From a virus, in IMG/VR virus record IMGVR_UViG_3300045972_000071, positions 23,618 through 87,617 of that record: a DNA stretch of 64,000 nt, one strand, 5' to 3'. Shown here one piece after another: positions 11,938 to 52,115 of the stretch (positions are counted from its first letter, which is position 1; each line of letters begins with the position of its first letter). A program made the translations under genes and the position numbers. The notes under the pieces were generated by a model. It was given only the letters and a program-made list of their open reading frames with translations. It was not told the origin of the DNA and did not search any database.

Positions 11938-11948
11938 TGTGCTATTAT
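11938..11948 (+). promoter_or_regulatory. Extended -10 promoter motif
   Basis: TGTGcTATTAT, identical to the motif at 15277. Confidence 0.5.
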
Positions 11949-11988
11949 CAAAGTAACAGAAGTGCAAATAAGAAAGTAAGGAGTTATT

Positions 11989-12246
11989 ATGACATCAAAG
12001 AAGGCACAAGCATTTCAAGCTGATCTTGAAGAACTGGTCAAGAAACATGACGTTTTCTTGAACGGTACATTTCAGATGAAGGGCGAAGATGAGGACGACA
12101 TTGCCGTAGTGTCCATCGGACAAGCGTCTATTGGGGATGTTAAATCCAGTATGCATCATCTTCTGGAACAATCCTACAGTATCATTGCAGAAATTCTGAT
12201 CGAAAACATAACTTCGGGAGGGGACGCCAGTGCCACTACACATTGA
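11989..12246 (+). CDS. Hypothetical protein
   Basis: AAGGAG RBS; 85 aa. Confidence 0.65.
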   Translation: MTSKKAQAFQADLEELVKKHDVFLNGTFQMKGEDEDDIAVVSIGQASIGDVKSSMHHLLEQSYSIIAEILIENITSGGDASATTH

Positions 12247-13177
12247 CTGTCGCCCCTCGTCACTTGAAACAGTGATGGGGAATGAGGGAGTTAAAGATGC
12301 CCTCAGAAATAAATTCACGAAAAACCCCGGCACTGTGTTTGATCCACCCCATTCAGTTCTGTTCGTAGGACCATCAGGGTGCGGTAAAACTACTCTCGCA
12401 CGTATTACAGCTACAATGCTCGGATGTGCTCCAGAAGATGTTCAGGAATATAATTCCTCGAATAACAGGGGAATCGACACTATCCGGGAGATTGCACAAA
12501 ACTGTCTTTACTCTCCGACATTCGGCTCAGTGAAAGTTTACATTCTGGACGAAGTGCACCGCATGACAAAAGATGCCCAAAACGCTCTGTTGAAACTGCT
12601 GGAAGATACACCGAAGCATGTTTTCTTTCTGCTTGCAACAACTGACCCGGAAATGCTGATTAAAGCAATACTCACCCGGTGCATGAAATTTGAAGTGAAG
12701 TCATTGCCTAATCCACAAGTGATGAAACTTCTCTGTAATACCGTTCAAGATGCTGGCATTGCACTGACCGACTTCTCTGAAAAAGTGCTCCAACTCATTG
12801 TAAAGACAGCAGAAGGATGCCCTCGTCAAGCTCTCATTCTTCTTGACTCAGTAATTGATATAGAAGATGAAGAGAAAGCACTGGCAGCCGTATCAGAATC
12901 AACGGCAAGCAGTACGGAAAGTCTTGATCTTTGTCGCTTACTGCTTGAAACGAGAAAGAACAGATGGGATGATGCCCGATTCTTGTTGAAGGGATTGATG
13001 GATGATCCTGAGAAGATGCGTTATGGGATTCTCGGATACATGAATGCTGTTCTTATGTCGGACAACTGCAAAGACCCAGATCATGTATCCGGTGTGATTG
13101 ACATGTTCACAGAATCTTTCATGTACTCTGGCAAAGCAGGATTGTCCAATGCAGTATTTCAGGCTTGCAAACTGTGA
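12230..13177 (+). CDS. Clamp loader AAA+ ATPase, DnaX (gamma/tau)-like
   Basis: GPSGCGKTT, GIDTIRE, VYILDEVH, AQNALLKLLE, TRC. Confidence 0.92.
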   Translation: MPLHIDCRPSSLETVMGNEGVKDALRNKFTKNPGTVFDPPHSVLFVGPSGCGKTTLARITATMLGCAPEDVQEYNSSNNRGIDTIREIAQNCLYSPTFGSVKVYILDEVHRMTKDAQNALLKLLEDTPKHVFFLLATTDPEMLIKAILTRCMKFEVKSLPNPQVMKLLCNTVQDAGIALTDFSEKVLQLIVKTAEGCPRQALILLDSVIDIEDEEKALAAVSESTASSTESLDLCRLLLETRKNRWDDARFLLKGLMDDPEKMRYGILGYMNAVLMSDNCKDPDHVSGVIDMFTESFMYSGKAGLSNAVFQACKL

Positions 13178-13520
13178 TTGAGGGACTCTCAAGTACCGGT
13201 GGATTGGCGAATCTATCGACTGAGGACCTCCGTTGGTGAAGGAGTAGCGACCTCAGCAGTTTGCAATGATATAATACCCGGTGTCGGTAGAAGTCCGACT
13301 ATCTGCATCAAGCTGATGCGGAGAATACCCTTAACAGGTGAAAGATTGACGCTATGCCGGGACACAAGGACTTGGGAGTAGAACCCGCATCGGTAGCATG
13401 GCACCGACTCCCATATGATACCGTACTCTACATGCTGATTAGGCACGTGAATTTCGTGTCAGCTAAACAGAGTTCCTTAAACGGGTAAGGGGATATTGGT
13501 GACTCCCCACTAAATATTAT
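13178..13520 (+). ncRNA. Candidate structured ncRNA 1 (family unassigned)
   Basis: About 340-nt gap in a tightly packed operon, with at least 8 stems containing G-U pairs consistent with the + strand. Confidence 0.5.
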
Positions 13521-14068: not shown

Positions 14069-14770
14069 ATGAGTGAAAACAAAGATGAAGTTTTAAAGAT
14101 GCTTGGAATGATTAAACGCCCCGGGATGGATAAACTGATTGATTGGTTGTCAAATGAAACTGATTACTTCACGTCTCCGTCCTCTACGAAGTATCACGGC
14201 AACTACGAAGAGGGGTTAATTGACCACTGTCTGAACGTCTATGACTCACTCGCACTGCTCAATGCTGAATTTGGTGATAATGAGTATAGCGAGGAATCAT
14301 TGATGGTCGTAGCCTTGCTCCATGACATGTGCAAATGCAATACATACATTCCGAATGATGATCCTGCTTCCGATGCTCAGATCAAATATGCCCAGAGTTT
14401 GTTAGATCAGAATGGGAGAGAACCTCTTCCGAAAGTCAAACTCACAAAATGGTATGTCAGTAAGGTCATAGATCATCTGAAAAGCGGTGAAGGTGAGTTC
14501 CCTGAATTTGCAGCCGCATATAAAGTGAAAGATAAGTTTCCAATGGGACACGGAGAGAAGTCTCTATACCTCATTCAGAAGTTTATCCGTCTTTCTGATG
14601 AAGAAGCACTGGCAATACGTTGGCATCTCGGTGCGTTCGATCCTGGCTTTCACTTCGGATACCCCACAGGTTTCGCCACTCAGCAAGCAGTACGGGAATG
14701 TCCTCTTGTTACAATGACGATTTCAGCAGACTTTCTGGCCACTTGGATGGTCGATATTACAGTAAAATAG
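14069..14770 (+). CDS. HD-domain phosphohydrolase
   Basis: YHGNYEEGLIDHCLNV, ALLHDMCK, GHGEKS, AIRWHLG, AD. Confidence 0.9.
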   Translation: MSENKDEVLKMLGMIKRPGMDKLIDWLSNETDYFTSPSSTKYHGNYEEGLIDHCLNVYDSLALLNAEFGDNEYSEESLMVVALLHDMCKCNTYIPNDDPASDAQIKYAQSLLDQNGREPLPKVKLTKWYVSKVIDHLKSGEGEFPEFAAAYKVKDKFPMGHGEKSLYLIQKFIRLSDEEALAIRWHLGAFDPGFHFGYPTGFATQQAVRECPLVTMTISADFLATWMVDITVK

Positions 14771-14778
14771 GAGAACAC

Positions 14779-14964
14779 ATGTTTGAGCCGAAACTGAATG
14801 CACTGGTAGTTATCAAGAAGGGTAAATGTGATTGTGATGGATTATCTGCAGGGACTGTTGGATTTATAAAGTTCATTGAGCATCCAGATGCGTTCATGGT
14901 ACAAAAGCGTGATAGTGACAAGATACTGTGGCACTGTCGGGAATGTGTAACAGCATTCAAATAA
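14779..14964 (+). CDS. Hypothetical protein
   Basis: AGGAG RBS; MFEPKLN... Confidence 0.55.
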   Translation: MFEPKLNALVVIKKGKCDCDGLSAGTVGFIKFIEHPDAFMVQKRDSDKILWHCRECVTAFK

Positions 14965-14966
14965 TA

Positions 14967-15252
14967 TTAGCAGGGTTGGACAATGCTGAATGATTTCTCC
15001 ACTCATAAGCCCTGAAGGACACAACCGTTCATCGCTCCTGTTAGCTTCGCCGCTATAACGACAAGGTGACAAGTGTGTTGGTATAAGGAGAAATTGAGAA
15101 ATGTATGATACGTCATTCAGTCCCGGTGGGCGGGAAAACGTCAGGTGGGAGAGAAACCCATTGTAATGGTAGCCAATCCATTACTTAGTGGCAATGAGAC
15201 ACTGCCACATGAAGAACAATACTCTATAAGAAAATGCGAGCCCACTAGCTAA
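14967..15252 (+). ncRNA. Candidate structured ncRNA 2 (family unassigned)
   Basis: Ends pair (TTAGC/GCTAA), nested long-range stems, three hairpins and a possible pseudoknot; no credible ORF. Confidence 0.55.
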
Positions 15253-15276
15253 TTTTATTAAAAGGTAGAATAAAGA

Positions 15277-15287
15277 TGTGCTATTAT
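15277..15287 (+). promoter_or_regulatory. Extended -10 promoter motif
   Basis: TGTGcTATTAT upstream of the recombination operon. Confidence 0.55.
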
Positions 15288-15321
15288 CATTATGTAAGAG
15301 ATTGAATTGAAAGGAGAAATT

Positions 15322-15861
15322 ATGCCAGATGTAAGTTTTAAAGTTGAATTAGCCATTGATAAGAACAACCTCGATGTTTGTGCAATGCATCAACCTGAAT
15401 TGTATGCTCAGTGGGCTTGTAATTGGGCTGATGCTGTCAATGATCGGGACAGAAGCAAAGACAGATTATCTTTGGTAAGGAGTGAATGTGACACAGAAAT
15501 CAGATCAACTCCTAGTGAGTTCGGATGGACAAAAGTCGATAAGCCCCCTACGGAAGCATTTATTGCATCTGCTATTTGTGGACATCCAAACTTCGTTGAA
15601 GCAAATGAGGACTTCTTATCAGCCTGCCATGAGGTCAACATTCTGTCTGTCGCAAAGGAATCCTTCGAACAACGAAGAAAAATGATTGAAGTTTTGGTTC
15701 AACTGTATGTATCCTCATACTATTCAGGCAATAAGGATTTTGATCGTGCTTATGAACCTGCGGTAACAAAGTTGGCTGCCGAAGCACATTCAGAGCATCT
15801 GGAACAGAATCCACGTCTTGCCCGTAGAAAGTTGAAAACCGATGATTCTTCTAACAGTTAA
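15322..15861 (+). CDS. Putative recombination mediator, UvsY-like helical protein
   Basis: Helical sequence, just upstream of SSB and RecA; AAGGAG RBS before ATG 15322. Function inferred from context. Confidence 0.45.
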   Translation: MPDVSFKVELAIDKNNLDVCAMHQPELYAQWACNWADAVNDRDRSKDRLSLVRSECDTEIRSTPSEFGWTKVDKPPTEAFIASAICGHPNFVEANEDFLSACHEVNILSVAKESFEQRRKMIEVLVQLYVSSYYSGNKDFDRAYEPAVTKLAAEAHSEHLEQNPRLARRKLKTDDSSNS

Positions 15862-16009
15862 GGTATTACTTGCTATTTTCTTGGCGCTCATTCTGGCATA
15901 CTGCATAGGGCGTATGTTTGGCATGGGCTTTGGTAAGTCAATCACAACGATGTCGGCTAGCCTAAGAGGCACTACGACAAAAGGAGAGAAGAAACATGAA
16001 GCCCAGTGA
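15842..16009 (+). CDS. Small single-pass membrane protein (55 aa)
   Basis: MILLTVKVLLAIFLALILAYCIG...; fills the gap and overlaps both neighbours. Confidence 0.5.
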   Translation: MILLTVKVLLAIFLALILAYCIGRMFGMGFGKSITTMSASLRGTTTKGEKKHEAQ

Positions 16010-17108
16010 ACGCAGGAAACAGATGAAGAATGACATGGCGGACCGTCTGCAAGAATCGTACAACAGCAAAGATTCTTCCGGTAAGTTCAAAAGTATATTC
16101 CTGAAAGACAAGATCGGTAACGTCCAGAAATGGAAAGCGTCCGAAGATGAACACTTCCTGAACATCATCCCATTCATTGCCGGTAACAACATGCCTATCG
16201 TTGACGGTAAGAAACTCGCCGCTGGTAAAGTTGCTCACTGTCTTGATGTGTGGGTACACGGTAAAGTCGGCATCAACGAGGACAGCTACATCTGTCTTGC
16301 TCGCTCTTACGGTGGTAAGTGTCCTATCTGCGAGGAGCAAGCCGAACTCCGCAAACAGGATGATTATGATGATAAGTATGTCAAGTCATTGAATCCTTCT
16401 CGCCGTGTTGTCTACAACATCGAGTGCCTTGATTCTGACAAAGAAGCAAAGAAAGGTTTGCAGTATTTTGAAGTATCACACTACCTCTTTGAAAAAGAAC
16501 TGACTGAAATCGCTAAGAAACCCCGCGGTGGTGGATTCATTACTTATCAGGATCCAGATGATGGCAAGATCGTTTTCTTCCGCAAGAGTGGCAGTGGGCC
16601 AACAAACACAAAATACTCAGCGTTCAAGTTCGAGGACAGAACTGAAATTGTCTCCGATGATATTCTTGATGCCGCTCTTGTTCTTGACGAATGCATTCAC
16701 ATTCCTTCTTATGAAGAAGTGAAAAACGCATTCTACGGTACAGAATCAGAAGTTGACCCTGAGGCTCTGGAAGAGCGCAAGACCGAATCTGAAAGTACAC
16801 GTAGACAATCAGCACCGCCTAAGTTCAAATGCCCTGGCGATCGTCCTACTGACTTCGGTGATCTGGAAGCATGTGATGATTGTCCAGATGTTGACGCTTG
16901 TGAGAAAGAATTGGAAGCTAAGGAAGAAGCCGACCTGGCTGCTAAAACTGCTCAAGAAGAGAAAGCAGAAGTGAAAGAAACCCCCTCGGCTACACGGCGT
17001 GTACGTTCTTCTGCATCTGAGGAAGCGTCTGTTGAGAAAGAGACCGTAGCTGAATCGACTACCGATCAGACTGAAGGTCGCAGACTTCGCCGTAGACCAG
17101 GCGCTTAG
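15996..17108 (+). CDS. Single-stranded DNA-binding protein, T4 gp32-like
   Basis: H..YICL...KCPICE Zn site, DPDDGK..F.K.G.G..TKY, long acidic tail; upstream of RecA. Confidence 0.75.
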   Translation: MKPSERRKQMKNDMADRLQESYNSKDSSGKFKSIFLKDKIGNVQKWKASEDEHFLNIIPFIAGNNMPIVDGKKLAAGKVAHCLDVWVHGKVGINEDSYICLARSYGGKCPICEEQAELRKQDDYDDKYVKSLNPSRRVVYNIECLDSDKEAKKGLQYFEVSHYLFEKELTEIAKKPRGGGFITYQDPDDGKIVFFRKSGSGPTNTKYSAFKFEDRTEIVSDDILDAALVLDECIHIPSYEEVKNAFYGTESEVDPEALEERKTESESTRRQSAPPKFKCPGDRPTDFGDLEACDDCPDVDACEKELEAKEEADLAAKTAQEEKAEVKETPSATRRVRSSASEEASVEKETVAESTTDQTEGRRLRRRPGA

Positions 17109-17110
17109 TC

Positions 17111-18178
17111 ATGGCGGGCATAGTTCGCAGAAGTGTAGGCAACTCCGTAGCATCGGATATCAAAGAAAATAAATCCGATGAATCAACAACACCCAGTGGG
17201 GCTAACGTCCCGACAAACTTTGCAACAACTGTATCCACTGGTTCTACACTTCTCGATCTTGCTATATCAGGAGGCCGTCTCGAAAGGGGCGGCATTCCTG
17301 GTGGCATTATCGTAGAGATATTTGGACCATCCGGTGCAGGAAAATCAGCATTACTCTCAGAACTATCAGCATCTACTCAGTCCCGTGGTGGCAAAGTCAA
17401 ATTCTTGGATCCAGAGGCACGTCTTGACAAAGCGTACACTGAAATTTATGGTGTAAATATCAAAGAGGACTTTGAATATGCACGTCCCGATACTGTATCC
17501 GGTATGTTTGTTGACGAAATATGGAACTGGGATACACCGAATAAAGATGTAATTAACATGATTGCCGCTGACTCACTCGCCGCATTATCTACAAATATGG
17601 AGATGGACAATGACGACGGAGATAAAATGGGAATGCGGAGAGCGAAAGAGTTTTCTGAAGGACTGCGTAAAACTTGCCGTCTTATCGCTCAAAACAACTG
17701 GCTTATTGCCATGTCTAACCAAATCAGAATGGGAGAAGGTGGGAAAGTCACGACACCCGGAGGACATGGCGTTCCATTTTATGCATCGTTGCGAATGCAG
17801 ATTAAGCCCGGATACCCTACATCAAAGATTGTCAAGAAGAAGAAGATGGGCAAAACGGAGGTTTCTAAGGTACTGGGAATCTTATCTGAGGTTACTATCG
17901 TTAAATCATCAGTCGATGATCCTTGGAGAACAGCACCTCTATCTATCATCTTTGGATATGGCATCGACACCATCCGTGACGAGTTGCAGTATTATAAGGA
18001 TCTCACAGGGGAGACCACTTATAATTGCTTTGATAAAACGTATGCCGCAATGGACCCAGCTATCGCTTTCATCGAAGATAATGGATTCAAACGGAAACTC
18101 CAAGATCGAACAATCGGTCTTTGGAACGAAGTGCAAGACAAATTCAAAACTAACCGCAGAGTAAAGGACAGGAGATAA
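17111..18178 (+). CDS. recA: RecA/UvsX-like recombinase
   Basis: STGSTLLDLAI, GGIPGGIIVEIFGPSGAGKS, DSLAAL, NQIR, TTPGG, FYASLR. Confidence 0.93.
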   Translation: MAGIVRRSVGNSVASDIKENKSDESTTPSGANVPTNFATTVSTGSTLLDLAISGGRLERGGIPGGIIVEIFGPSGAGKSALLSELSASTQSRGGKVKFLDPEARLDKAYTEIYGVNIKEDFEYARPDTVSGMFVDEIWNWDTPNKDVINMIAADSLAALSTNMEMDNDDGDKMGMRRAKEFSEGLRKTCRLIAQNNWLIAMSNQIRMGEGGKVTTPGGHGVPFYASLRMQIKPGYPTSKIVKKKKMGKTEVSKVLGILSEVTIVKSSVDDPWRTAPLSIIFGYGIDTIRDELQYYKDLTGETTYNCFDKTYAAMDPAIAFIEDNGFKRKLQDRTIGLWNEVQDKFKTNRRVKDRR

Positions 18179-42132: not shown

Positions 42133-44478
42133 CTACCCCCATACCGTAAATGTTACTTCATCACTACTAAAATCAAAACTTATTCCAATTAAGGTGTAGT
42201 TCTTGGTCATGTAAAATCTATTGAAGTTAATGTAAATTACATCTTTTCCCATAGTAGGAAATAATGAACCTAATGCACTTCTATGTGCCCTTACTGTGTA
42301 TGTATTTGAATTGCTTCTTAAGGTTAATTGCCGTGTTGCCTCTAATTCAGCAGAAGTTCCATCTACAAAACAAGAGTCAAAAGTTAATGCTGGTGCCATT
42401 GGATGCATTATCTGAACAGTAGGAGATGTCTTTACGGCTGTTTGATACTCCATGCCCAATAAAGCTATGATAGCTAAATCCGGAGTTGTTCGGAACGACC
42501 TACTTCCATAAGGACCGTAACTGGACATGATTAGACCGAATGGTCCACCACTAAACATGTAATTTGAATTATAATTAGTTAGGGTTATAAACTCCCATGA
42601 TACACCGTCGGATGAAATTGCATATGTCTTACTTGGATTAGTTGTAGCCATGGCATAAAAAGTGCCATCATAAAAATACATTCTTGTGTAAGTATTTAAT
42701 GAACTAACGGTAGTAGAAGTCCATGTTAATCCATTGTCTTTTGATATGGCAATAGTACCACTAGATTCATGGGCAATGAACATTCCATTACCGTAGCAAA
42801 CCGATACCCATGAAGTTCCTGTTGGCAATGTTCTAATAGACCACGTTGCTCCATAGTTACTGGAATATGCATATCTATTAGTACCTGTTTCAAGAATGAT
42901 AGCGTATGTGCCTTCATTATGTGCAATCTTAGACCAGTTACCACTTGATGTGGTTGTATTCCATGAAGTGTATGTTCCTGTACCAGAAAAATACAAATTA
43001 GATGTGCCTGGGGCAGAGGCAATGAAATACATACCATTAAATACTAAATTATCCCACACAAACGAACCTGGTAATGCAGTAACTACCCAAGACACTCCGT
43101 TGTTGATTGAATATGCCACACTATTTGTGTTTATAATGACAAATCTATCTCCGCCATAAGCGATAGCTCTAGGAGTAAAAGGAGCCGCGGTAGATAGTAA
43201 TGTAAGGCCACCATCAACTACAGAAGAGTAAACGGTCGTGCCTGTAATGAGCATAAACATACCATTACCATACACCCCTATGTAAGTACCATATGCATCA
43301 AAGTTTTTTTCCTCCATACCCACGGCACCTAAAGTAGAAGGATCTTGTTTTGTATAGTTACGGGAATGATTTATAGTGACACTCCAGCAAGGAAGTCCCC
43401 TGCCCTCATCATTATTTACTACTTTTTGAACATCCAGGATACTGTTAGCGTTTAAAGAAATGTACGGAGTATCGGCACTGACATCCTTCAATATGCCCAG
43501 TCTATAATTACCCACTAGAGGATTGACGCCCCACCAACCACCGATACTGCTCATTAATTTATCTACCGCAGTTTTAATCGTCATATCCTCAGTTACATAT
43601 AAACCAACAGTAGCTCCGTTATCTGTACCTAACTGAGTTAAATCAGTTCCACTTATGGACGCTCCTACAATGTTCGACAAAATTTCGTATACACAGTCTG
43701 CGGTTCCTGTGTATGTGCCAGTACCATTGCTAGTTACATCCATAGTGACTACACCAATAGGTGTGTTAGATAGACGAACATAGTTTGCTGTGTAATTATA
43801 ATATCCAGGTACTGGCTCTTTTGACATGAGTTCCGTCATATTTACAGACTCACCTTGTAATATAGGCACCCCTTTATCTTTCACACTATTAATCACGGCA
43901 CCTGCATTTATACCAATCCCAGTATTTTGGGCAAACTCATAAATGAGTTTAGACTTATTTACAAGAATGGGCGTGATATTTTTACATGTACCGTATATTA
44001 ATGGTTTATTCTTCCCTTTTAACTCTATAGAACCTTCTAATCCATCTGGTTCTGCATTATTACCCAGATACTTCTGAGTTTGTAAAGGAACATCTGTTTT
44101 AAATTGAGGATCTTTAATCCTTATTTCTACCTCAGTATTTGAAAATACAGGTAATTCCATAACGAACTGTAGTGTCCATTTAGTCCCGGTAACAACATCC
44201 CATTCCTGTATAGTAACAGTCTGCCCATCTATACCATATCCAAGAAGATAATCCAGTTGTCCATCTGGATTAGTGAGTGTGATACTTCCATATCCTATTT
44301 TTGATTGTCCTGAGGTTCTACCACCGTCAAACAATGCGTTTGTCATTATACCAGGGTGTTTGAGTCTGGCTTGAAACCATTCACCACCCCAATACACCCC
44401 AGAACCGGAGAAGTGTCTATATGACACTTCCCCTATGTAATTCAATAATGTCATTGTTACAAGAAAGTCATTTATCAT
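42133..44478 (-). CDS. Tail tip/hub protein with an inserted beta-propeller
   Basis: LKGKNKPLIYG..KN.TP; repeated YGNG.F.A...S.DG.TW (Asp-box-like); follows the tape measure. Confidence 0.75.
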   Translation of the reverse strand: MINDFLVTMTLLNYIGEVSYRHFSGSGVYWGGEWFQARLKHPGIMTNALFDGGRTSGQSKIGYGSITLTNPDGQLDYLLGYGIDGQTVTIQEWDVVTGTKWTLQFVMELPVFSNTEVEIRIKDPQFKTDVPLQTQKYLGNNAEPDGLEGSIELKGKNKPLIYGTCKNITPILVNKSKLIYEFAQNTGIGINAGAVINSVKDKGVPILQGESVNMTELMSKEPVPGYYNYTANYVRLSNTPIGVVTMDVTSNGTGTYTGTADCVYEILSNIVGASISGTDLTQLGTDNGATVGLYVTEDMTIKTAVDKLMSSIGGWWGVNPLVGNYRLGILKDVSADTPYISLNANSILDVQKVVNNDEGRGLPCWSVTINHSRNYTKQDPSTLGAVGMEEKNFDAYGTYIGVYGNGMFMLITGTTVYSSVVDGGLTLLSTAAPFTPRAIAYGGDRFVIINTNSVAYSINNGVSWVVTALPGSFVWDNLVFNGMYFIASAPGTSNLYFSGTGTYTSWNTTTSSGNWSKIAHNEGTYAIILETGTNRYAYSSNYGATWSIRTLPTGTSWVSVCYGNGMFIAHESSGTIAISKDNGLTWTSTTVSSLNTYTRMYFYDGTFYAMATTNPSKTYAISSDGVSWEFITLTNYNSNYMFSGGPFGLIMSSYGPYGSRSFRTTPDLAIIALLGMEYQTAVKTSPTVQIMHPMAPALTFDSCFVDGTSAELEATRQLTLRSNSNTYTVRAHRSALGSLFPTMGKDVIYINFNRFYMTKNYTLIGISFDFSSDEVTFTVWG

Positions 44479-47400
44479 TGGTTAGCTACCTGTCTCGCTT
44501 TTTGTTCCATAGTAGCAAGTCTGGATTCTTGTTTTTCGTTTATCTCAATCAACCTGTTGAAGCCTGCTTGCAATACTCTCACATTAGCAGCCAACTGTCG
44601 ATTAGTTTCCTTTTGCTCTGCAAGGGATTCTTTATTATCTGCTGAACCTGTAGTTGGAATACCATATTTTCTGAGAACATCCGAAGAGGCTCTATCCATG
44701 ATAATCTCGCCTTGATGAATCTGAGCAGTCATATCGTAAGGTACAGATGCTGTTCCTGTTGCGAAAGCCGGTAAAGGAAGCCCATCTTTTCCTTTAAAGC
44801 TAGAGTATTTGTAACTCCCTTGAGATATACCCCACCAATTCATAAAATCTGTAAAATCTATTTTACCATCACTATTTAAATCGTACCTTAAATCAGCAGG
44901 AATAAATCCTTGTTGCATTAAGCTGACTTTATCAAGTATACCACTCAATAAGGAAGAAACCATTGTAGTACCAAAAGTATATGAATGCTGTGGATTATTA
45001 CCTGTCCCCGCTAATACTTGCATTCGTGAATCTGTATCTGAGGTAGAAGGTGCTGTAGTAACTCCAGATAGTCCGGTTAATCCATTGGTTTGTCCTTTAG
45101 CTATTGTGCTATTTAGAGTTGCAACAGCGGCATCTGATTTTGTTTTGTAATCAGCTACAGAAAGTGTACCGGTTTTATACTGATCCAATAAAGAAGATAC
45201 AGTGGTTTGTGCTATAGTTTTTTGTGAGGTATAATCACTCACAATAGCTAAAGCATTTACAAAATTTAAAAGTCCGTCTTTGGTAGCTTTTGCTGATGCC
45301 GTTAATGCCTCATTAAACTTTATAAGGTTAGCTGATACAGAATCAGTAGGGTTATTCAAACCGTTACTTAATGCAGTAGTTACTAAACCTAATTGAGTTT
45401 CAATGGCTTTCTTACCATCTGCACCAGATATTGTTCCATTTACTACATCCTGAATTGTTTTCTGTTCCTTAGTAATAGCTATCTTTGCATCTGCGGCACT
45501 GATAGTTCCATCAATAACACCCTGGATAAGTTTCTTCTCTATATCAATGGCACTCTTTGCGGTAGCAGAATCTATGGATCCGTTTACTGCCGCCTGGACA
45601 ATCTTCTTCTCACCATCTATGTAATATTTAGCTGTTTCCGCATCAATCGAATTATCCAAAGCTAACTGAATAATATTTCTCTCTGTTGCTATGGCACTTA
45701 CCGCTGTAGAAGAATCAATGATACGGTTCAAGTTTGCACTGATAATACTCTTCTCATTGGCTATGGCGCTTGTTGCAGTAGCGGAGTCAATGGAACCATT
45801 TAAAGCGTTCTGAATAATATTTGCATTCTGGGCTATGTACGTGGATGCAAGAGTGCCGTTTATTGTACCATCTAAAGCCCCCTGAACCACTGTGTATGTA
45901 GTCTTTATAGAATCATTGGCAGAAGCTGAACTTATGGTGTTATCAAAGGCTAACTGCAATGCACCTATACTTGATTTCACTGCCTCTGCGGCGACACCAG
46001 TTAATTTAGGATCTTTCAAAGCATCCTGTAAATTAGTTATCTGTAGCTTGATTGCATCAGGAGTTGTACTAGGTGTGATGGGTGTATTTGTTACATCTAT
46101 CAATGCTTTTATGGATAATCCCAATGCCGAAGCGGCTGAACCTGTATCTATCTGCATTGCTTCCCATGTAACAGACAGTTGTTTCAACATAGCCTGATCA
46201 CCAGAAGTAATAGCCTTAGATATTTCATCCAACAAAACAAGCTGTTTATCTACAGCAGATAAATCACCAGTGGTGTTACTGAACTGATCTAACTTGGCTA
46301 TACCTGCGGCATAGTCCTTCTGATATGTTAGACTACTGGCATTATATGTCTTTGATGCCGTTATCAAGGCGTTGACACGTTCTACAACATTGGTCTTATC
46401 CGCAGTATCCATATTTGCTTTTGCGGTCTTGTACGCTGATTCGGTACTTGCTCCTGTTGCGGCTCCTGTCAATAATGTTTTCTTTGCATTCAATATGCTC
46501 TGAGTGAAACTTATTGAGTCGGTGAGTGCCGTTTTGCTCGCATCCAGTATCTTCTGCATTGCTTCTGAGACAGTAGAAGATGCCGTTTTCATTGCATCCG
46601 CCATTTCAAGCTCTTGAGCGATCTTCAAAGAAGTAATATCAAGACCAGCGGCGATTGCATCCTTCATTTCCGTTTGTTGTGTGATCTGCAAATCAATCAC
46701 ACTAGATAGATTCTTATATGCAGGATTAAGTTTTAAAATCCGCACTTGATAATCCATAGTCGATTGAGAAACCGCTTTCATCTGCTTTGTTACTTCTGCA
46801 AATGCTGGTCCTAATTCAATCAGTGTGGCAACAAGTTCTGGATTCGTCACTGTGTTGACAAGATTCCTGAACTCCTCATTAGTAGTTGGCATAATAAGGT
46901 TTGCATCTTCATACGTGTTATTTATCATCATCCATGTAACACGGACTTTATCCATTGATACTTTTGCTTTCAGAACCTGCTTCTCTGGGTCTGTAAACAT
47001 TGCAGTAGAATAAGCATCCATTGCTTTATTGAATTTATCAGTACCGCCGAATAACTGTTCCATCTTATATGCGGCATTAGCACCTTCTATACCAGTAAGT
47101 GTCATTGCTTTACCAATAAGATCATACTGACTCGTTACGTTGGCAATGGAGTCACTTAATCGGTTATACACTGCTGTTGCTGTCTCCGAAGAGTTTATTG
47201 CATAAGCGGCTATATTTGGAATAGCATCTGTGATGATTCTATTGGACATATCATTGAATGCATTTTCAATGTCCTTTGTGATATCTTCTATGGAACGCCC
47301 GGCTGTGTTTATCTTACCTGATGTATATGTGGAGTTCTTTGTCGCATTGTCAATTTGACTACCCACACCTAACATAGTACCACGCTGATTTAATCCAGCG

Positions 47401-50400
47401 GACATATTTCCATAATAACTATTTAAACTGTTTGTGAATGGATCAGAGGATTTAGACCAATCAGTTCTACTTTTATCAGAACTAAACCAACCGCCTTTCT
47501 TTTTCATGTCTACAAAATCTTGACTGGATATCTTACCATCTTTTAAGCCCATCTGAATACCTGAGTTCTCTCTAGTCCAACTACCAGAACCAAACATTGA
47601 TTGACCTAAACTATAAATAGCACCAACTACCGTACCAACTATTGCACCACCTATTGCGCCAGCTATTCCCCCACCAGCTCCCCAAGCGGCACCTATGGCA
47701 GCACCTTTTAACATGTTACCACCGTAGTTTACATCATTAACGGCAGTATTTTTTTGTGCAAACCTATTAGGGGCATCAATGGCTAGATTAGATCCAGCAC
47801 CCCCTGATTTGAATGAATCTGCTATCGTGAACAATGAATCAGATACGGACAGCATGGCGTGTGCGGCATTACCCATTGCGTCAGCTATCCGATTTAACTG
47901 AGAAGATGTTTGCTGATTGGCAATGCTTGTGTACGCAGATCCTGTGGATGTTCCTATATTATCTACTGGATTACTTCCAGAACTTGAACCAGCGCCTCCT
48001 GCTTGAAAAGAACCTGACGGTGCTTTAACTCCACTTCCACTATCCCCGAAAGAAGTGGATGCAATGAGTGCTATTTGAACAGCACCAAGTGCGGCTGCGG
48101 CTGCGGCCATAGCCCATCCAGCTGGACCAGGTATGGTTAATTGTGCCATAACCGCAGATGCCGTACTCATAATCGTGGCACCTATTTGCAGTGCCTTTGC
48201 AGTCTCAAATCCACTTCTACTGGTTTTATCTTGCATATTTGCTACATCCATAAGGGAGTTACCTATGAATGCGGCAGAATCACCAGCGAGTTTCATCTTA
48301 CCTTGTTCCATACCAGTATACTGATTCTTTGTCTTGTCGGTGTAATCCGCTTGTGCCATAGCGGATAATTTGGCAAAACTTGTGATCTTCGGGAATACCT
48401 GACCTGCTTGTGTCACTAAACGATCATACCCTGCTTTCTCTTGATCTTTCTGCAACTTGTTTATAGCCATTTCTTTATCTTTACCAGCTACCATTGTTTT
48501 CAATCGTAATTCCGATAGCTGTATTTCATACTCTGACCACTTACTTAAATTAGCCGCGGATGCTTGTTGCTTCTCAAGGATAGCGGCCTTCTCAAGTTCA
48601 ATCATCCTTAGCTTTTCTTCGTGGGCTTCTTTTATGATGGCCATTTCATTTGCAACAGGGTTAATGACTTCACCTGTAACAGCAGATGTACCTACCTTCT
48701 TTGCTTCATCAGTTAACCTTGTATTCTGCATTGTTGCTGTGGCAGTCTGCAAAGCAATGACTTCTTCCCTCTCTTTGCGTAAGGCTTTAACCTTTTCCCT
48801 ACTCAGAGTATCTTGGCGTCTACCTTCGTCGGCTCTGAATTTAGCAAGGATGGTTTCTGCCGCTAATAGTTCGGCAGAGGACTCCAGAATAGCCCCTTGG
48901 GATCCTTTCCCCTGAGCAAACTTGTCTACTTCTGTTTTAGCCGCTTCTTTCTTTTTATTTATTATTTGTTCCAGTATTACTATCTCTTTATCTGCTTCCT
49001 GTTTAGAATAAGATAGGAGAGAATCATACATACTCGCAGTGGTTATTTTTTGATCTTCATGGGCAATCTGTAATTGGGCTTTTTTCTCCGCCATTTGTGC
49101 TTTGAATATAGTAAGTTCCGAAGAACCTTTCTCTTTATCGAATATGCCTTGGCCTCTCTTTGTATCTGCTTCGGTCTTGTTCTTTATGACCTCTTCTGCT
49201 TGACGCTTATAACGAGCCCGCATCATTTCAGCGTCAGCACCTGTGGCTCCTGCACCGTCACGTAACTGGGCTTCTAATTCACGATTGACTTCTCCTATAG
49301 ATGCCTGCAATGCGTTCTGATACTTTTCCGACTGTATTACTTTAGCATTCCATCTGTCCCAACCATCAACAAGATGGTTAAATGCTTTATCTACATCCGA
49401 TAAACCCGTTGCAGTATCATCAAGTGGAGGCATCTTTGCAGAACCTGGAGCACCTGGTTCCATTAAACTTCTATTCAATGCACCCTTCTTGATTCTCTCT
49501 GCGGAAGATAAACTCTCTTTAGCCGCCGTGTTAGTAGAATCAATCTTCTTCTTTAAAGAGTCATAAGCATCACCAGTCATACCAACTGCGGTAGTCAATC
49601 CAGCACCTACAGCGTGATTTAGTTGATCTTGAAACCCTCTGGATTGTGCTAATAACTCTCCACCTCTTTTGACTTCTCGCAGATAAACAGCATAGTCATT
49701 GCCCATAGCAACAATGGCTTTGTCGTCTGTTGATACCGGAGATGCATTCCCAGTGCTTTTTTCTTCCCTTAATCGCCACTCTAATTCAAGTTTCTTTCTT
49801 GTAGCTTCATTTGTTGCTTCAATGGAATCAGCTAATTTCTTAGCATCTGCCACTTCTATTCCAGCTTGTTTCTTTGCTTTCTCTGCGGCATTACCGTATT
49901 TTTCCCACCACCAATAGCCAACCATTAATGCTAAAGTTATGGCTCCTAATGGTCCACCTACAAGATTTAGCGCACTGCTTAGAGCCACTTTCGCTGTAGT
50001 TAATGCACGGGTACTGAGTGATGTGGCATCAAGTGCCCTCTGATTCATCAGCAATGCTTCGGTATGTGCTACATTGCGTAAGTATGCCTGTTTAAGATGA
50101 TCGGCCTCGTTGAACAGTATTTGATTCCTGGCTAATTGTGCCCCAGAAACAAATCCAGTGTTTATTCCTTGTTTTACTAATGCGGCATTATATGCACCAG
50201 CGGCTGCGGCAGCCGAACCATCTGCCATCATAGATCCTAATTTTGCCGCATTCAATCTACGGACAGCCTCGGTCTGTAAATTTAAAGATGCGGTTTCTGC
50301 CTGACTCAATTCAATCTGATATGCATATTTTGAGGCGAAGTTTGCTTCCGCCGCGGCTAAACTTAACTTTGCTTGTTCAAGTTCTACTATGGCTATTCTC

Positions 50401-52115
50401 TCAATGGCTATTGACTCTGCATTGAACTGCCTACTTGCATTCATTGCATAGTTACGCTCATATTCAGCAGTTGCCCCCGCTAGGCGGGAAGCAGCCAATT
50501 CCTTCTCTTCCATAGCCATCATCACGTTAGCTCTTGCCCCCGCCATAAGCCCGTTGACACGTTCTTGTTCAGCAAGTCTGAATGCGTTGGAAGATTCAAT
50601 AGCCAACATGTCTGCTTCGGCTACTCTTAATGTAGATGCCGCTTTTTCCACATTAGCCGTTATTTGTTCTCTTGTTGTTACAACTCCAGCACCATACATG
50701 GCTGCTTTTTCTGCTTCTGCCATAGCAAGGAGTTGTGATTTTGTCAGAACATCGGCTTGTGTCTTTCCTAAGATTGCGAGAGCCTCTGCTTCTACAACGA
50801 TAGCTTTAGAGGCTCCCGATATAGATCCGTTAAATATAGAATGCGCCGCAGATGATAGTTTTACTGATGTGTACCACATGGTGAGCAGTAACACCATATT
50901 GATTAGTGCCTCAGAATGCTTTACCATTCCAGCAGTACCATCAAGAATTACACTACCTATATTTTTCAATCCAGCACTTATACTATCAATCATCTTTGCT
51001 ACTTCTGGTTTGATGGATAGTTTTTGTGTAGCAGAATCAACGTCAAATACAGCATTCCTGACTTTTATCCAAGCGCCATGCACTGCATTAGCAAGAACGT
51101 CGGCATTACCACGTAAATACTCATTCAGATTACTCACTATGCCAGATAGTTCAGCCACCACAGGAGTAAACGATTTTCTTTGTACAAGATTTATGGATGT
51201 TTCCAGTGATGTCTTAATTGCTGTCCACGTCTTATTAATATCACCAGAAGCCATGTTAATACCAGCTAAATACGGAGCCAGACGTTCAAGCAAATCACCA
51301 TGTTGTTTACCTAATGCAACAACATCCTTTAATCCTCCTTTATATAATCCTTGCGCCTTTATCTGCTCATTCAAAACTTTTGCTAAGGTAGAACCTTGAT
51401 TGATAGTTCCAGACATTAACGCCCGCATCTCTTGAAACATCTGTTTGTTCTGATCTTGTCCTGCGGTATATAAAGCAATAGCGTTGGATATTGCTGTAAA
51501 TGACTCTACCTGCTTCTTGTTATTAACGTCAAGAACTACGCCCTGAGCGGTCATAACTTGCAACATAGCCATCAAACCAGCATAGTTTGCAAGGGAGTTT
51601 TTATCTATCTCCATGAGTTTACGTGCGAGAACGTCTGCATACCTAGCACTTTCACTATATGCGGCTTGCATCTTTCCAGAATCGTTTGAATCAATCCTAT
51701 CACGGATAATAGCTATCTGTGTTAATCCTGCCGCTATTTGAATTACCGATATTTGAAATTCATCCACAGCAGTTATACCAGATTTTATGAAGGAAATAAA
51801 TCCACCTACGGCATCTCCTAAAGCGCGGAATACAAGAACGGTAGCCCCAATACGCAATATCCTATCACGGAGATTGTCGAATTGGCTACCTGTGGAAGCT
51901 AATGGAGAGCGTAAATCATTGAGTGCTTGCTTGACAGAACTCAATCCACTCATAGATGTATTGTTGAAGGATGTACTTCCAGATAACGCTTTCATAGCCG
52001 CAGAGGTCTTTGAAGCCTCTTGCTGTATGCGTAGCATGTTAGCAGTGATGGTTTGAGTTGCTGGTCCTGACCCATCATTAATGACTACATTTAACCCTGC
52101 GGCTGTATCTGCCAT
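44475..52115 (-). CDS. Tape measure protein (2546 aa)
   Basis: Very long, Ala-rich and helical, with hydrophobic segments and a C-terminal FATGT..VP.DM.AQIH.GE motif; directly after the tail chaperones. Confidence 0.93.
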   Translation of the reverse strand: MADTAAGLNVVINDGSGPATQTITANMLRIQQEASKTSAAMKALSGSTSFNNTSMSGLSSVKQALNDLRSPLASTGSQFDNLRDRILRIGATVLVFRALGDAVGGFISFIKSGITAVDEFQISVIQIAAGLTQIAIIRDRIDSNDSGKMQAAYSESARYADVLARKLMEIDKNSLANYAGLMAMLQVMTAQGVVLDVNNKKQVESFTAISNAIALYTAGQDQNKQMFQEMRALMSGTINQGSTLAKVLNEQIKAQGLYKGGLKDVVALGKQHGDLLERLAPYLAGINMASGDINKTWTAIKTSLETSINLVQRKSFTPVVAELSGIVSNLNEYLRGNADVLANAVHGAWIKVRNAVFDVDSATQKLSIKPEVAKMIDSISAGLKNIGSVILDGTAGMVKHSEALINMVLLLTMWYTSVKLSSAAHSIFNGSISGASKAIVVEAEALAILGKTQADVLTKSQLLAMAEAEKAAMYGAGVVTTREQITANVEKAASTLRVAEADMLAIESSNAFRLAEQERVNGLMAGARANVMMAMEEKELAASRLAGATAEYERNYAMNASRQFNAESIAIERIAIVELEQAKLSLAAAEANFASKYAYQIELSQAETASLNLQTEAVRRLNAAKLGSMMADGSAAAAAGAYNAALVKQGINTGFVSGAQLARNQILFNEADHLKQAYLRNVAHTEALLMNQRALDATSLSTRALTTAKVALSSALNLVGGPLGAITLALMVGYWWWEKYGNAAEKAKKQAGIEVADAKKLADSIEATNEATRKKLELEWRLREEKSTGNASPVSTDDKAIVAMGNDYAVYLREVKRGGELLAQSRGFQDQLNHAVGAGLTTAVGMTGDAYDSLKKKIDSTNTAAKESLSSAERIKKGALNRSLMEPGAPGSAKMPPLDDTATGLSDVDKAFNHLVDGWDRWNAKVIQSEKYQNALQASIGEVNRELEAQLRDGAGATGADAEMMRARYKRQAEEVIKNKTEADTKRGQGIFDKEKGSSELTIFKAQMAEKKAQLQIAHEDQKITTASMYDSLLSYSKQEADKEIVILEQIINKKKEAAKTEVDKFAQGKGSQGAILESSAELLAAETILAKFRADEGRRQDTLSREKVKALRKEREEVIALQTATATMQNTRLTDEAKKVGTSAVTGEVINPVANEMAIIKEAHEEKLRMIELEKAAILEKQQASAANLSKWSEYEIQLSELRLKTMVAGKDKEMAINKLQKDQEKAGYDRLVTQAGQVFPKITSFAKLSAMAQADYTDKTKNQYTGMEQGKMKLAGDSAAFIGNSLMDVANMQDKTSRSGFETAKALQIGATIMSTASAVMAQLTIPGPAGWAMAAAAAALGAVQIALIASTSFGDSGSGVKAPSGSFQAGGAGSSSGSNPVDNIGTSTGSAYTSIANQQTSSQLNRIADAMGNAAHAMLSVSDSLFTIADSFKSGGAGSNLAIDAPNRFAQKNTAVNDVNYGGNMLKGAAIGAAWGAGGGIAGAIGGAIVGTVVGAIYSLGQSMFGSGSWTRENSGIQMGLKDGKISSQDFVDMKKKGGWFSSDKSRTDWSKSSDPFTNSLNSYYGNMSAGLNQRGTMLGVGSQIDNATKNSTYTSGKINTAGRSIEDITKDIENAFNDMSNRIITDAIPNIAAYAINSSETATAVYNRLSDSIANVTSQYDLIGKAMTLTGIEGANAAYKMEQLFGGTDKFNKAMDAYSTAMFTDPEKQVLKAKVSMDKVRVTWMMINNTYEDANLIMPTTNEEFRNLVNTVTNPELVATLIELGPAFAEVTKQMKAVSQSTMDYQVRILKLNPAYKNLSSVIDLQITQQTEMKDAIAAGLDITSLKIAQELEMADAMKTASSTVSEAMQKILDASKTALTDSISFTQSILNAKKTLLTGAATGASTESAYKTAKANMDTADKTNVVERVNALITASKTYNASSLTYQKDYAAGIAKLDQFSNTTGDLSAVDKQLVLLDEISKAITSGDQAMLKQLSVTWEAMQIDTGSAASALGLSIKALIDVTNTPITPSTTPDAIKLQITNLQDALKDPKLTGVAAEAVKSSIGALQLAFDNTISSASANDSIKTTYTVVQGALDGTINGTLASTYIAQNANIIQNALNGSIDSATATSAIANEKSIISANLNRIIDSSTAVSAIATERNIIQLALDNSIDAETAKYYIDGEKKIVQAAVNGSIDSATAKSAIDIEKKLIQGVIDGTISAADAKIAITKEQKTIQDVVNGTISGADGKKAIETQLGLVTTALSNGLNNPTDSVSANLIKFNEALTASAKATKDGLLNFVNALAIVSDYTSQKTIAQTTVSSLLDQYKTGTLSVADYKTKSDAAVATLNSTIAKGQTNGLTGLSGVTTAPSTSDTDSRMQVLAGTGNNPQHSYTFGTTMVSSLLSGILDKVSLMQQGFIPADLRYDLNSDGKIDFTDFMNWWGISQGSYKYSSFKGKDGLPLPAFATGTASVPYDMTAQIHQGEIIMDRASSDVLRKYGIPTTGSADNKESLAEQKETNRQLAANVRVLQAGFNRLIEINEKQESRLATMEQKARQVANQ
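45400..45970 (-). repeat. About 8 degenerate 24-aa (72-nt) repeats in the tape measure
   Basis: IIQNALNGSIDSATATSAIA / IVQAAVNGSIDSATAKSAID / LIQGVIDGTISAADAKIAIT. Confidence 0.8.

Follow-up and report, generated by a model that had tools for sequence, protein, structure and literature searches.

The window studied here is a 64,000-nucleotide stretch of viral DNA that corresponds to bases 23618-87617 of an 87.6-kb IMG/VR virus record. All genes in the neighbourhood of interest lie on the + strand. A clamp loader gene (12230-13177) and an HD phosphohydrolase gene (14069-14770) are followed by a 61-aa ORF (14779-14964). Beyond a gene-free gap come a 179-aa gene of unknown function (15322-15861), a gp32-like SSB gene (15996-17108) and a UvsX/RecA-like recombinase gene (17111-18178). 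The 61-aa ORF is 32% identical to a small ORF in the related IMG/VR record L002, and the 179-aa gene is 65% identical to its orthologue there; a protein search returned 22 relatives of the latter at 56-76% identity. Elsewhere in the window, the structural region carries a 2546-aa ORF on the - strand (44475-52115) that has no PHROG match at E values up to 1e-5.

The gap (14965-15321) is 358 nt long. Its 3' part holds a promoter-like site for the 179-aa gene at 15258-15287, with TTAAAA and an extended -10 element, TG-TATTAT, separated by 18 nt. A sequence-only reading had placed a structured RNA at 14967-15252 and had described it as filling the space from a stop codon to the next promoter. These boundaries are confirmed. 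The 61-aa ORF ends at 14964, its stop codon (14962-14964) abuts the element, and the fold starts 1-2 nt past this codon and closes 5 nt ahead of the promoter-like site, which thus remains outside the folded element. The cassette as a whole, defined by the sequence comparison below, extends over 14955-15267 on the + strand. Among sequencing runs, the only matches to this stretch come from two pond metagenomes, and no RNA run contains it.

The -10 core of the promoter-like site, TGCTATTATCA, also occurs in L002, and the -10 region is retained in relatives that do not carry the element. The 13-mer around this extended -10 (15277-15289) recurs at 11938-11950, ahead of the gene that begins at 11989, as well as in the L002 spacer. 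It is probably a promoter motif of the group to which the window phage belongs.

Every string used in drawing the earlier model (10 long-range, 6 from hairpins) is found where that model had placed it. Folding energies are a poor guide to whether the structure is real. On the + strand, the folding energy of positions 14967-15252 (286 nt) is -78.1 kcal/mol (z -1.30), and 19 of 200 shuffled sequences do as well or better. The - strand gives nearly the same picture, with -77.8 kcal/mol, a z score of -1.42 and 18/200 shuffles as good or better. For the entire 358-nt gap the z scores are -2.28 on the + strand and -1.07 on the - strand. The fold of the window sequence alone is no better than chance, and thermodynamics would not justify a claim of structure.

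Support for the structure comes from a homologue. An 18-mer from the conserved 5' block, searched against IMG/VR, led to record L011, in which positions 2156-2401 constitute the only full-length homologue found. The likeness falls into two blocks: L011 2156-2209 is 87% identical to window positions 14955-15008, and L011 2236-2401 is 81% identical to 15096-15267, for a core identity of 84%. When 20 kb of the window were compared with the whole 71.8-kb L011 record, these two blocks were the only matches. L011 is an N4-like phage unrelated to the window phage. Its copy of the element resides within an 890-nt gene-free stretch (1767-2656), between a 239-aa gene and the SSB gene region. The 239-aa gene encodes a Sak4-like gp44 with representatives in 469 phage records, several of which carry the annotation N4 gp44; a primase gene lies upstream and the SSB gene downstream.

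Six helices of the sequence-only reading, all defined on the window alone, were tested on L011 with a structural alignment built by coordinates. This comparison rests on two sequences plus fragments read in part. The covariation that the reading had called for is present: 37 of the 38 alignable pairs are kept in L011, eight of them by double changes and two by one-sided changes between G-C and G-U. The single broken pair is the outermost one of GTAATGG/CCATTAC. In a permutation null that scattered the 32 observed substitutions over 195 core columns 20,000 times, 0.48 double changes were expected and no permutation reached eight. Broken pairs were expected to number 7.4, and one or fewer was obtained with P of about 0.001.

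The compensatory changes are spread over much of the structure. The P1 helix, TTAGC/GCTAA in the window, is ATGGC/GCCAT in L011, with two double changes. The stem that closes domain 2 shows two more (GGTGGGC/GCCCACT versus GATAGGC/GCCTATC), together with one change of G-U to G-C. Hairpin 1 has one double change (TGGG/CCCA versus TGAG/CTCA), and hairpin 2 has three along with the loss of its outermost pair (GTAATGG/CCATTAC versus GTACGG/CCGTAC). Hairpin 3 differs by one G-C to G-U change (GTGGCA/TGCCAC versus GTGGCA/TGCTAC), and the domain 1 stem, GCTGAATGA/TCATTCAGT, is unchanged. Thus, a fold with closed ends and two domains is supported, much as originally drawn.

Other treatments of the alignment give similar results. 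RNAalifold, applied to the structural alignment, predicts 58 pairs, none of which is broken, with 12 double changes, three of them in the poorly alignable tip of domain 1. A separate pair count on domain 2 omitted hairpin 2, because MAFFT misaligns it, and found 44 of 44 cells paired with four double changes. Slid controls for the same domain had 32-43% of their cells paired and zero or one double change. A shuffle control for domain 2, which is weak with only two sequences, reached the observed value in 32 of 500 cases. On the + strand, five of the 44 cells read as G-U, with no A-C anywhere, identifying the + strand as the one that folds. Together these comparisons firmly indicate that base-pairing in the element is under selection and that its fold is formed by the + strand.

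The element has no coding potential. Stop-free frames differ between the window and L011 copies, which are separated by indels of 1 and 2 nt, and four translations have no Pfam or PHROG match at E values below 0.1. A 21-codon peptide beginning at 15101, with a Shine-Dalgarno-like site before it, was considered and rejected. The L011 copy has a stop at codon 16, two of the three other changes alter the encoded residue, and all of them fit the RNA pairing.

Two other origins might be envisaged, a spacer that folds by chance and a gene that has decayed, given that single-sequence folding stays inside the shuffle range and that a 112-codon stop-free frame is present on the - strand. Against both stand the eight double compensatory changes, where fewer than one is expected. 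Moreover, no reading frame is conserved, no protein family is matched, and the ORF on the minus strand of L011 has no similar protein in a set of 5.8 billion. An origin of this kind is very improbable.

Selection on pairing could in principle act on DNA instead of RNA. The element would then be a folded single-stranded signal for priming, origin function or recombination, formed when the + strand is exposed in replication. Folded single-stranded DNA would give compensatory changes too, the - strand of the 286-nt stretch folds as well as the + strand, and both copies reside in replication or recombination modules beside SSB and annealing or recombinase genes. However, the G-U(T) wobbles occur on the + strand only (the 5/44 cells mentioned above, with no A-C), a pattern more typical of RNA and incompatible with a double-stranded cruciform. 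A branched architecture whose junctions are long and conserved, as found here, is likewise typical of RNA. In addition, no iterons or direct repeats are seen, the G+C content of 0.41 is close to the 0.42 of the window, and BLAST finds no second copy of the element in the phage genome. A DNA-level signal is therefore improbable.

The conserved 5' block (14955-15008) carries the first strands of the outer helices. P1 closes the whole element by pairing 14966-14971 with 15248-15253, and its double changes in L011 replace T-A by A-T and A-T by G-C. A second helix, P2, is predicted between GGG (14973-14975) and CCC (15122-15124); it is invariant in both sequences and therefore falls outside the covariation test. 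The 5' strand of the domain 1 stem occupies 14985-14999. Its GCTGAATGA portion pairs with 15113-15121, and its TTTCTC portion can pair in both copies with GAGAAA at 15096-15101. The 3' strand of this stem (15096-15121) consists of GAGAAA, a conserved internal loop of 10-11 nt and TCATTCAGT.

In domain 2 (15125-15246), a closing stem encloses three hairpins together with two long junctions that are single-stranded and conserved. The 5' strand of the closing stem, GGTGGGC (15125-15131), pairs with 15240-15246. It is followed by the single-stranded junction GGGAAAACGTCA (15132-15143), which is identical in L011. Hairpin 1 (15144-15162) has 6 bp and the loop AGAGAAA, with one compensatory and one one-sided change. 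The loop of hairpin 2 (15163-15184) is TAGCCAAT in the window and TAGAAT in L011, and that of hairpin 3 (15188-15208) comprises 9 nt that are identical in the two copies. The long 3' junction (15209-15239) includes the conserved stretch AAATGCGA and a possible 3-bp hairpin (15213-15215 with 15223-15225) that shows one compensatory change. The final strands of the closing stem (15240-15246) and of P1 (15248-15253) complete the element on its 3' side (15240-15253).

The tip of domain 1 behaves differently from this core. In the window it is 91 nt long (15005-15095), and L011 has a 30-nt hairpin in its place. In a second pond study, one contig agrees with 14965-15004 and with 15096-15160 but has 39 other letters separating the two blocks. 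Another contig from that study matches 15015-15090 alone, with nine differences and unlike flanks. These differences mark the tip as a replaceable sub-module. Two features of the sequence-only reading depend on this tip and for that reason are not conserved. For the proposed pseudoknot (CAGGGTT/AGCCCTG), as for the inner stem (ATTTCTCC/GGAGAAAT, 15087), the 3' partner is inside 15005-15095, which is without a counterpart in L011. It is only in the window that the 5' strand of domain 1 can alternatively pair with GGAGAAAT at 15087-15094.

Outside the element, ATTTCTCC (14993-15000) has a further partner. It is exactly complementary to GGAGAAAT not only at 15087-15094 but also at 15313-15320, where the same letters form the RBS of the 179-aa gene, and the minimum free energy fold of the 358-nt gap pairs the two. 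In read-through transcripts, ATTTCTCC could mask this RBS. The complementarity is not matched in L011, where the RBS is AAGGAGTATAA.

The region directly upstream of the L011 element (1767-2165) looks like a separate structured RNA module. Its folding z score is -4.15, with none of 100 shuffles as good, and a 68% identical homologue is found in record L040 (4485-4657), which does not carry the element. This module has two short stretches in common with the window. The first, GTTGGTATAAGG, is shared by the tip insert (15076-15094) and the 3' hairpin of the module (2052-2072), in both cases directly before the 3' strands of closing stems. It could be a structural motif that both have in common, or could have been left behind by an exchange of modules. 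The likeness between insert and module amounts to one shared 12-mer, and the insert by itself folds with a z score of -0.70.

The second is the exact 12-mer AGCGACCTCAGC, which is common to the L011 module (2095-2160) and to another structured RNA candidate of the window (candidate 1, 13178-13520; shared region 13220-13262). It provides the 3' strand of a TGAGG/CCTCA hairpin in each case, and the flanks are 70% identical over 37 nt (E of 5). Candidate 1 and the module may be homologous, to judge from this similarity. Between candidate 1 and the element itself, a relationship had been suggested as worth examining, and none emerged. Neither BLAST nor a covariance model of domain 2 detects any likeness, and 46 of 60 mononucleotide shuffles equal or exceed the duplex energy predicted for pairing of the two.

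Comparison with close relatives suggests how the element reached its present location. The IMG/VR relatives L001 and L002, whose HD proteins are 59% and 69% identical to that of the window, have the same order of HD gene, small ORF and 179-aa gene. In both, the distance from the small ORF to the next gene is about 65 nt, and this spacer holds the -10 core seen downstream of the element in the window. Nucleotide likeness to L002 ends at 14861 and resumes at 15279, and that to L001 ends at 14766 and resumes at 15282. These breakpoints identify the stretch as an insertion in the window phage. Likeness to L011 already covers the final codons of the 61-aa ORF and its stop (14955-14964), and the C-terminus of this ORF is unlike those of L001 and L002. 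The present 3' end of the gene may have been supplied by the inserted cassette.

The element is also sporadic in the lineage of L011. Among 14 gp44-anchored loci searched with nhmmer, it is found in one, the L011 record itself, and is absent from the 13 relatives. A DNA search of nine other whole records from the N4-like lineage, five of which are at least 90% complete, also returned none. In L039, whose gp44 is 78% identical, the next long ORF begins 95 nt past gp44.

Wider searches recovered no additional copies. A blastn search of GenBank phages with 801 nt gave no match, and the 301-nt element at E values up to 10 retrieved only two 31-nt matches to Staphylococcus phages, which are attributed to chance. 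Two exact patterns had no match in IMG/VR, and a further pattern matched L011 alone. Besides L011, the IMG/VR 18-mer search hit L008-L010 and L012, all chance occurrences inside coding DNA. The 25 metagenome loci (L013-L037) that match an 18-mer of the conserved junction are also due to chance, many of them sharing one recurring coding context. Two 20-mers yielded no matches in GTDB genomes. When the domain 2 covariance model was run over 200 kb of loci that included the window, only the two known copies appeared at E values up to 10. Weak nhmmer matches (E 1.5-9) in L039, L045, L046, L050 and L051 were treated as noise; the one in L046 (6394-6480) lies inside a long minus-strand ORF.

The element thus combines a self-contained covarying fold with a patchy occurrence in closely related phages and with reappearance in other genomic settings, as expected of a shuffled cassette. 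The cassette, which is common to two unrelated freshwater phages and missing from close relatives of both, was acquired horizontally. It is exchanged between phages and includes a sub-module that can be swapped, as opposed to being an RNA that is specific to one lineage.

Patchiness of this sort, combined with the sharing of a core at 84% identity by unrelated phages, is also what a selfish or catalytic RNA might produce, either as a self-processing ribozyme or as a promoter of its own spread between phage genomes. The multi-helix architecture, the conserved junctions and the sub-module nested in the tip would all suit such an RNA. On the other hand, Rfam ribozyme and intron models give no match at E values up to 10, and the element is positioned between genes and not within one. 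Neither copy has an endonuclease, transposase or reverse transcriptase gene beside it, and no terminal direct repeats are seen. This possibility is decidedly improbable. A group I or group II intron can be dismissed on similar grounds, since no intron model is matched, the element is placed between a stop codon and a promoter, and the L011 copy is situated among non-coding modules. The original description of an uncharacterised phage ncRNA with ribozyme-like complexity consequently holds in part. The element is non-coding, matches no Rfam family and is in a phage record, yet no test points to a ribozyme.

Representatives of catalogued families were sought throughout the window. Rfam 15 (4227 models) gave no match at gathering score over its entire length, and no family is matched by the element or by its L011 counterpart. 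At E values up to 10 there are only unrelated weak matches of 8-21 bits (a snoRNA, a preQ1-II riboswitch over the RBS and a picornavirus IRES), none of which is common to the window and L011. ARAGORN finds no tRNA or tmRNA in either sequence. Full-text literature searches returned no description of the element RNA. By these comparisons, the element represents an uncatalogued family of structured non-coding RNAs.

A riboswitch or other 5' leader of the 179-aa gene was considered as well and set aside, for the promoter-like site at 15258-15287 is located between the element and this gene. Since the + strand has no promoter-like site in 14600-15257, transcription of the element, which would lack a promoter of its own, presumably proceeds by read-through of the upstream replication operon.

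Placement at the end of this operon raises the possibility of a cis-acting 3'-end element, a compact closed fold that blocks 3' exonucleases or that insulates or terminates transcription ahead of the next promoter, with no function in trans. Such a role would suit the position 1-2 nt after the stop codon and 5 nt ahead of the promoter-like site, as well as the U-rich run that follows P1 in the window (AUUUUAUU); candidate 1 is likewise found at the end of a gene run. However, there is no terminator-like site anywhere in 14600-15600, and an intrinsic terminator is accordingly not indicated. The U-rich run is absent in L011, so that no 3'-end signal is conserved, and the element there is among other modules and not at a gene end. 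L001 and L002 manage the same junction without any such element, and a block to exonucleases would not need long conserved unpaired junctions. For these reasons a purely cis-acting role is unlikely.

The explanation that we favour, with moderate confidence, is that the element is a structured ncRNA cassette, exchanged horizontally and representing a new family, whose RNA is probably excised from read-through transcripts of the replication operon and persists as a stable RNA acting in trans. To judge from its anatomy and by analogy with tRNA-region RNAs of phages, excision would take place at the closed P1 end. Action in trans might be exerted through the conserved unpaired junctions (GGGAAAACGUCA, AAAUGCGA and UUGGACAAU) and the loops. 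The most likely target would be a host or phage protein that is bound or decoyed.

Several phage RNAs provide points of comparison. The stable RNAs C and D of phage T4 (species 1 and 2) are structured RNAs of unknown function encoded in the tRNA region, where they are co-transcribed and cut from a precursor. This region is dispensable and varies among relatives. The element described here is about twice as long as RNAs C and D and has two domains, and no tRNA genes accompany it in the window or in L011. GOLLD and ROOL are larger, at about 580 and 800 nt. The present element resembles them in being complex-folded and, as they often are, phage-borne, and differs in its lack of an Rfam match, the absence of a tRNA neighbourhood and its size of 230-290 nt. 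GOLLD and ROOL are described as large ornate RNAs of phages and prophages with complex folds and unknown function (10.1101/2024.12.08.627333).

The nearest published analogue is the sRNA1-3 cluster of Pseudomonas phage LUZ7, also N4-like, where it occupies a gap devoid of genes in the corresponding gene block. The gap, between orf69 and orf70, is reported to give rise to small non-coding transcripts, most of which are shorter than 250 nt and some apparently processed (PMC9163698). In the LUZ7 record this gap measures 398 nt and is about 1.8 kb after the SSB gene, and gp44 and gp45 are adjacent. The L011 element, in contrast, lies between gp44 and the SSB gene region. No sequence likeness to LUZ7 is detected by nhmmer (39-45 kb) or by the domain 2 covariance model (30-55 kb). 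The evidence differs in kind too, because the LUZ7 RNAs were found by transcriptomics, with no reported covariation, whereas the window element is supported by covariation and is known from sequence alone (PMC9163698). The two copies of the element also differ in their settings. In L011 it belongs to a gene-free stretch of modules, whereas the window cassette is solitary, flanked on both sides by protein genes of a phage outside the N4-like group (clamp loader, gp32-like SSB, UvsX), and carries an additional sub-module within the tip of its own stem.

Structured RNAs of phages have been charted far less thoroughly than their proteins. The two-domain fold, the compensatory evidence and the lack of a catalogued relative mean that the element could be registered as a new RNA family. 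Its presence in two unrelated phages, one an N4-like podovirus and the other an 87-kb phage carrying replication genes of the T4 type, and its absence from their close relatives show that non-coding RNA genes move as cassettes between phage lineages. The exchange of a stem tip further shows that such RNAs are built of exchangeable sub-modules. We offer as a tentative, and on balance doubtful, generalization that freshwater phages trade self-contained folded RNA genes in the manner of protein morons, and that these genes cross unrelated lineages, nest in one another's stem tips and decoy host factors or defences. If so, the element would be a founding covariation-supported member of such a system, with binding taking place on its conserved junctions. 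Should the reading as a trans-acting decoy prove true, cassettes of this type would be an RNA counterpart of the protein genes that phages use for anti-defence or host takeover.
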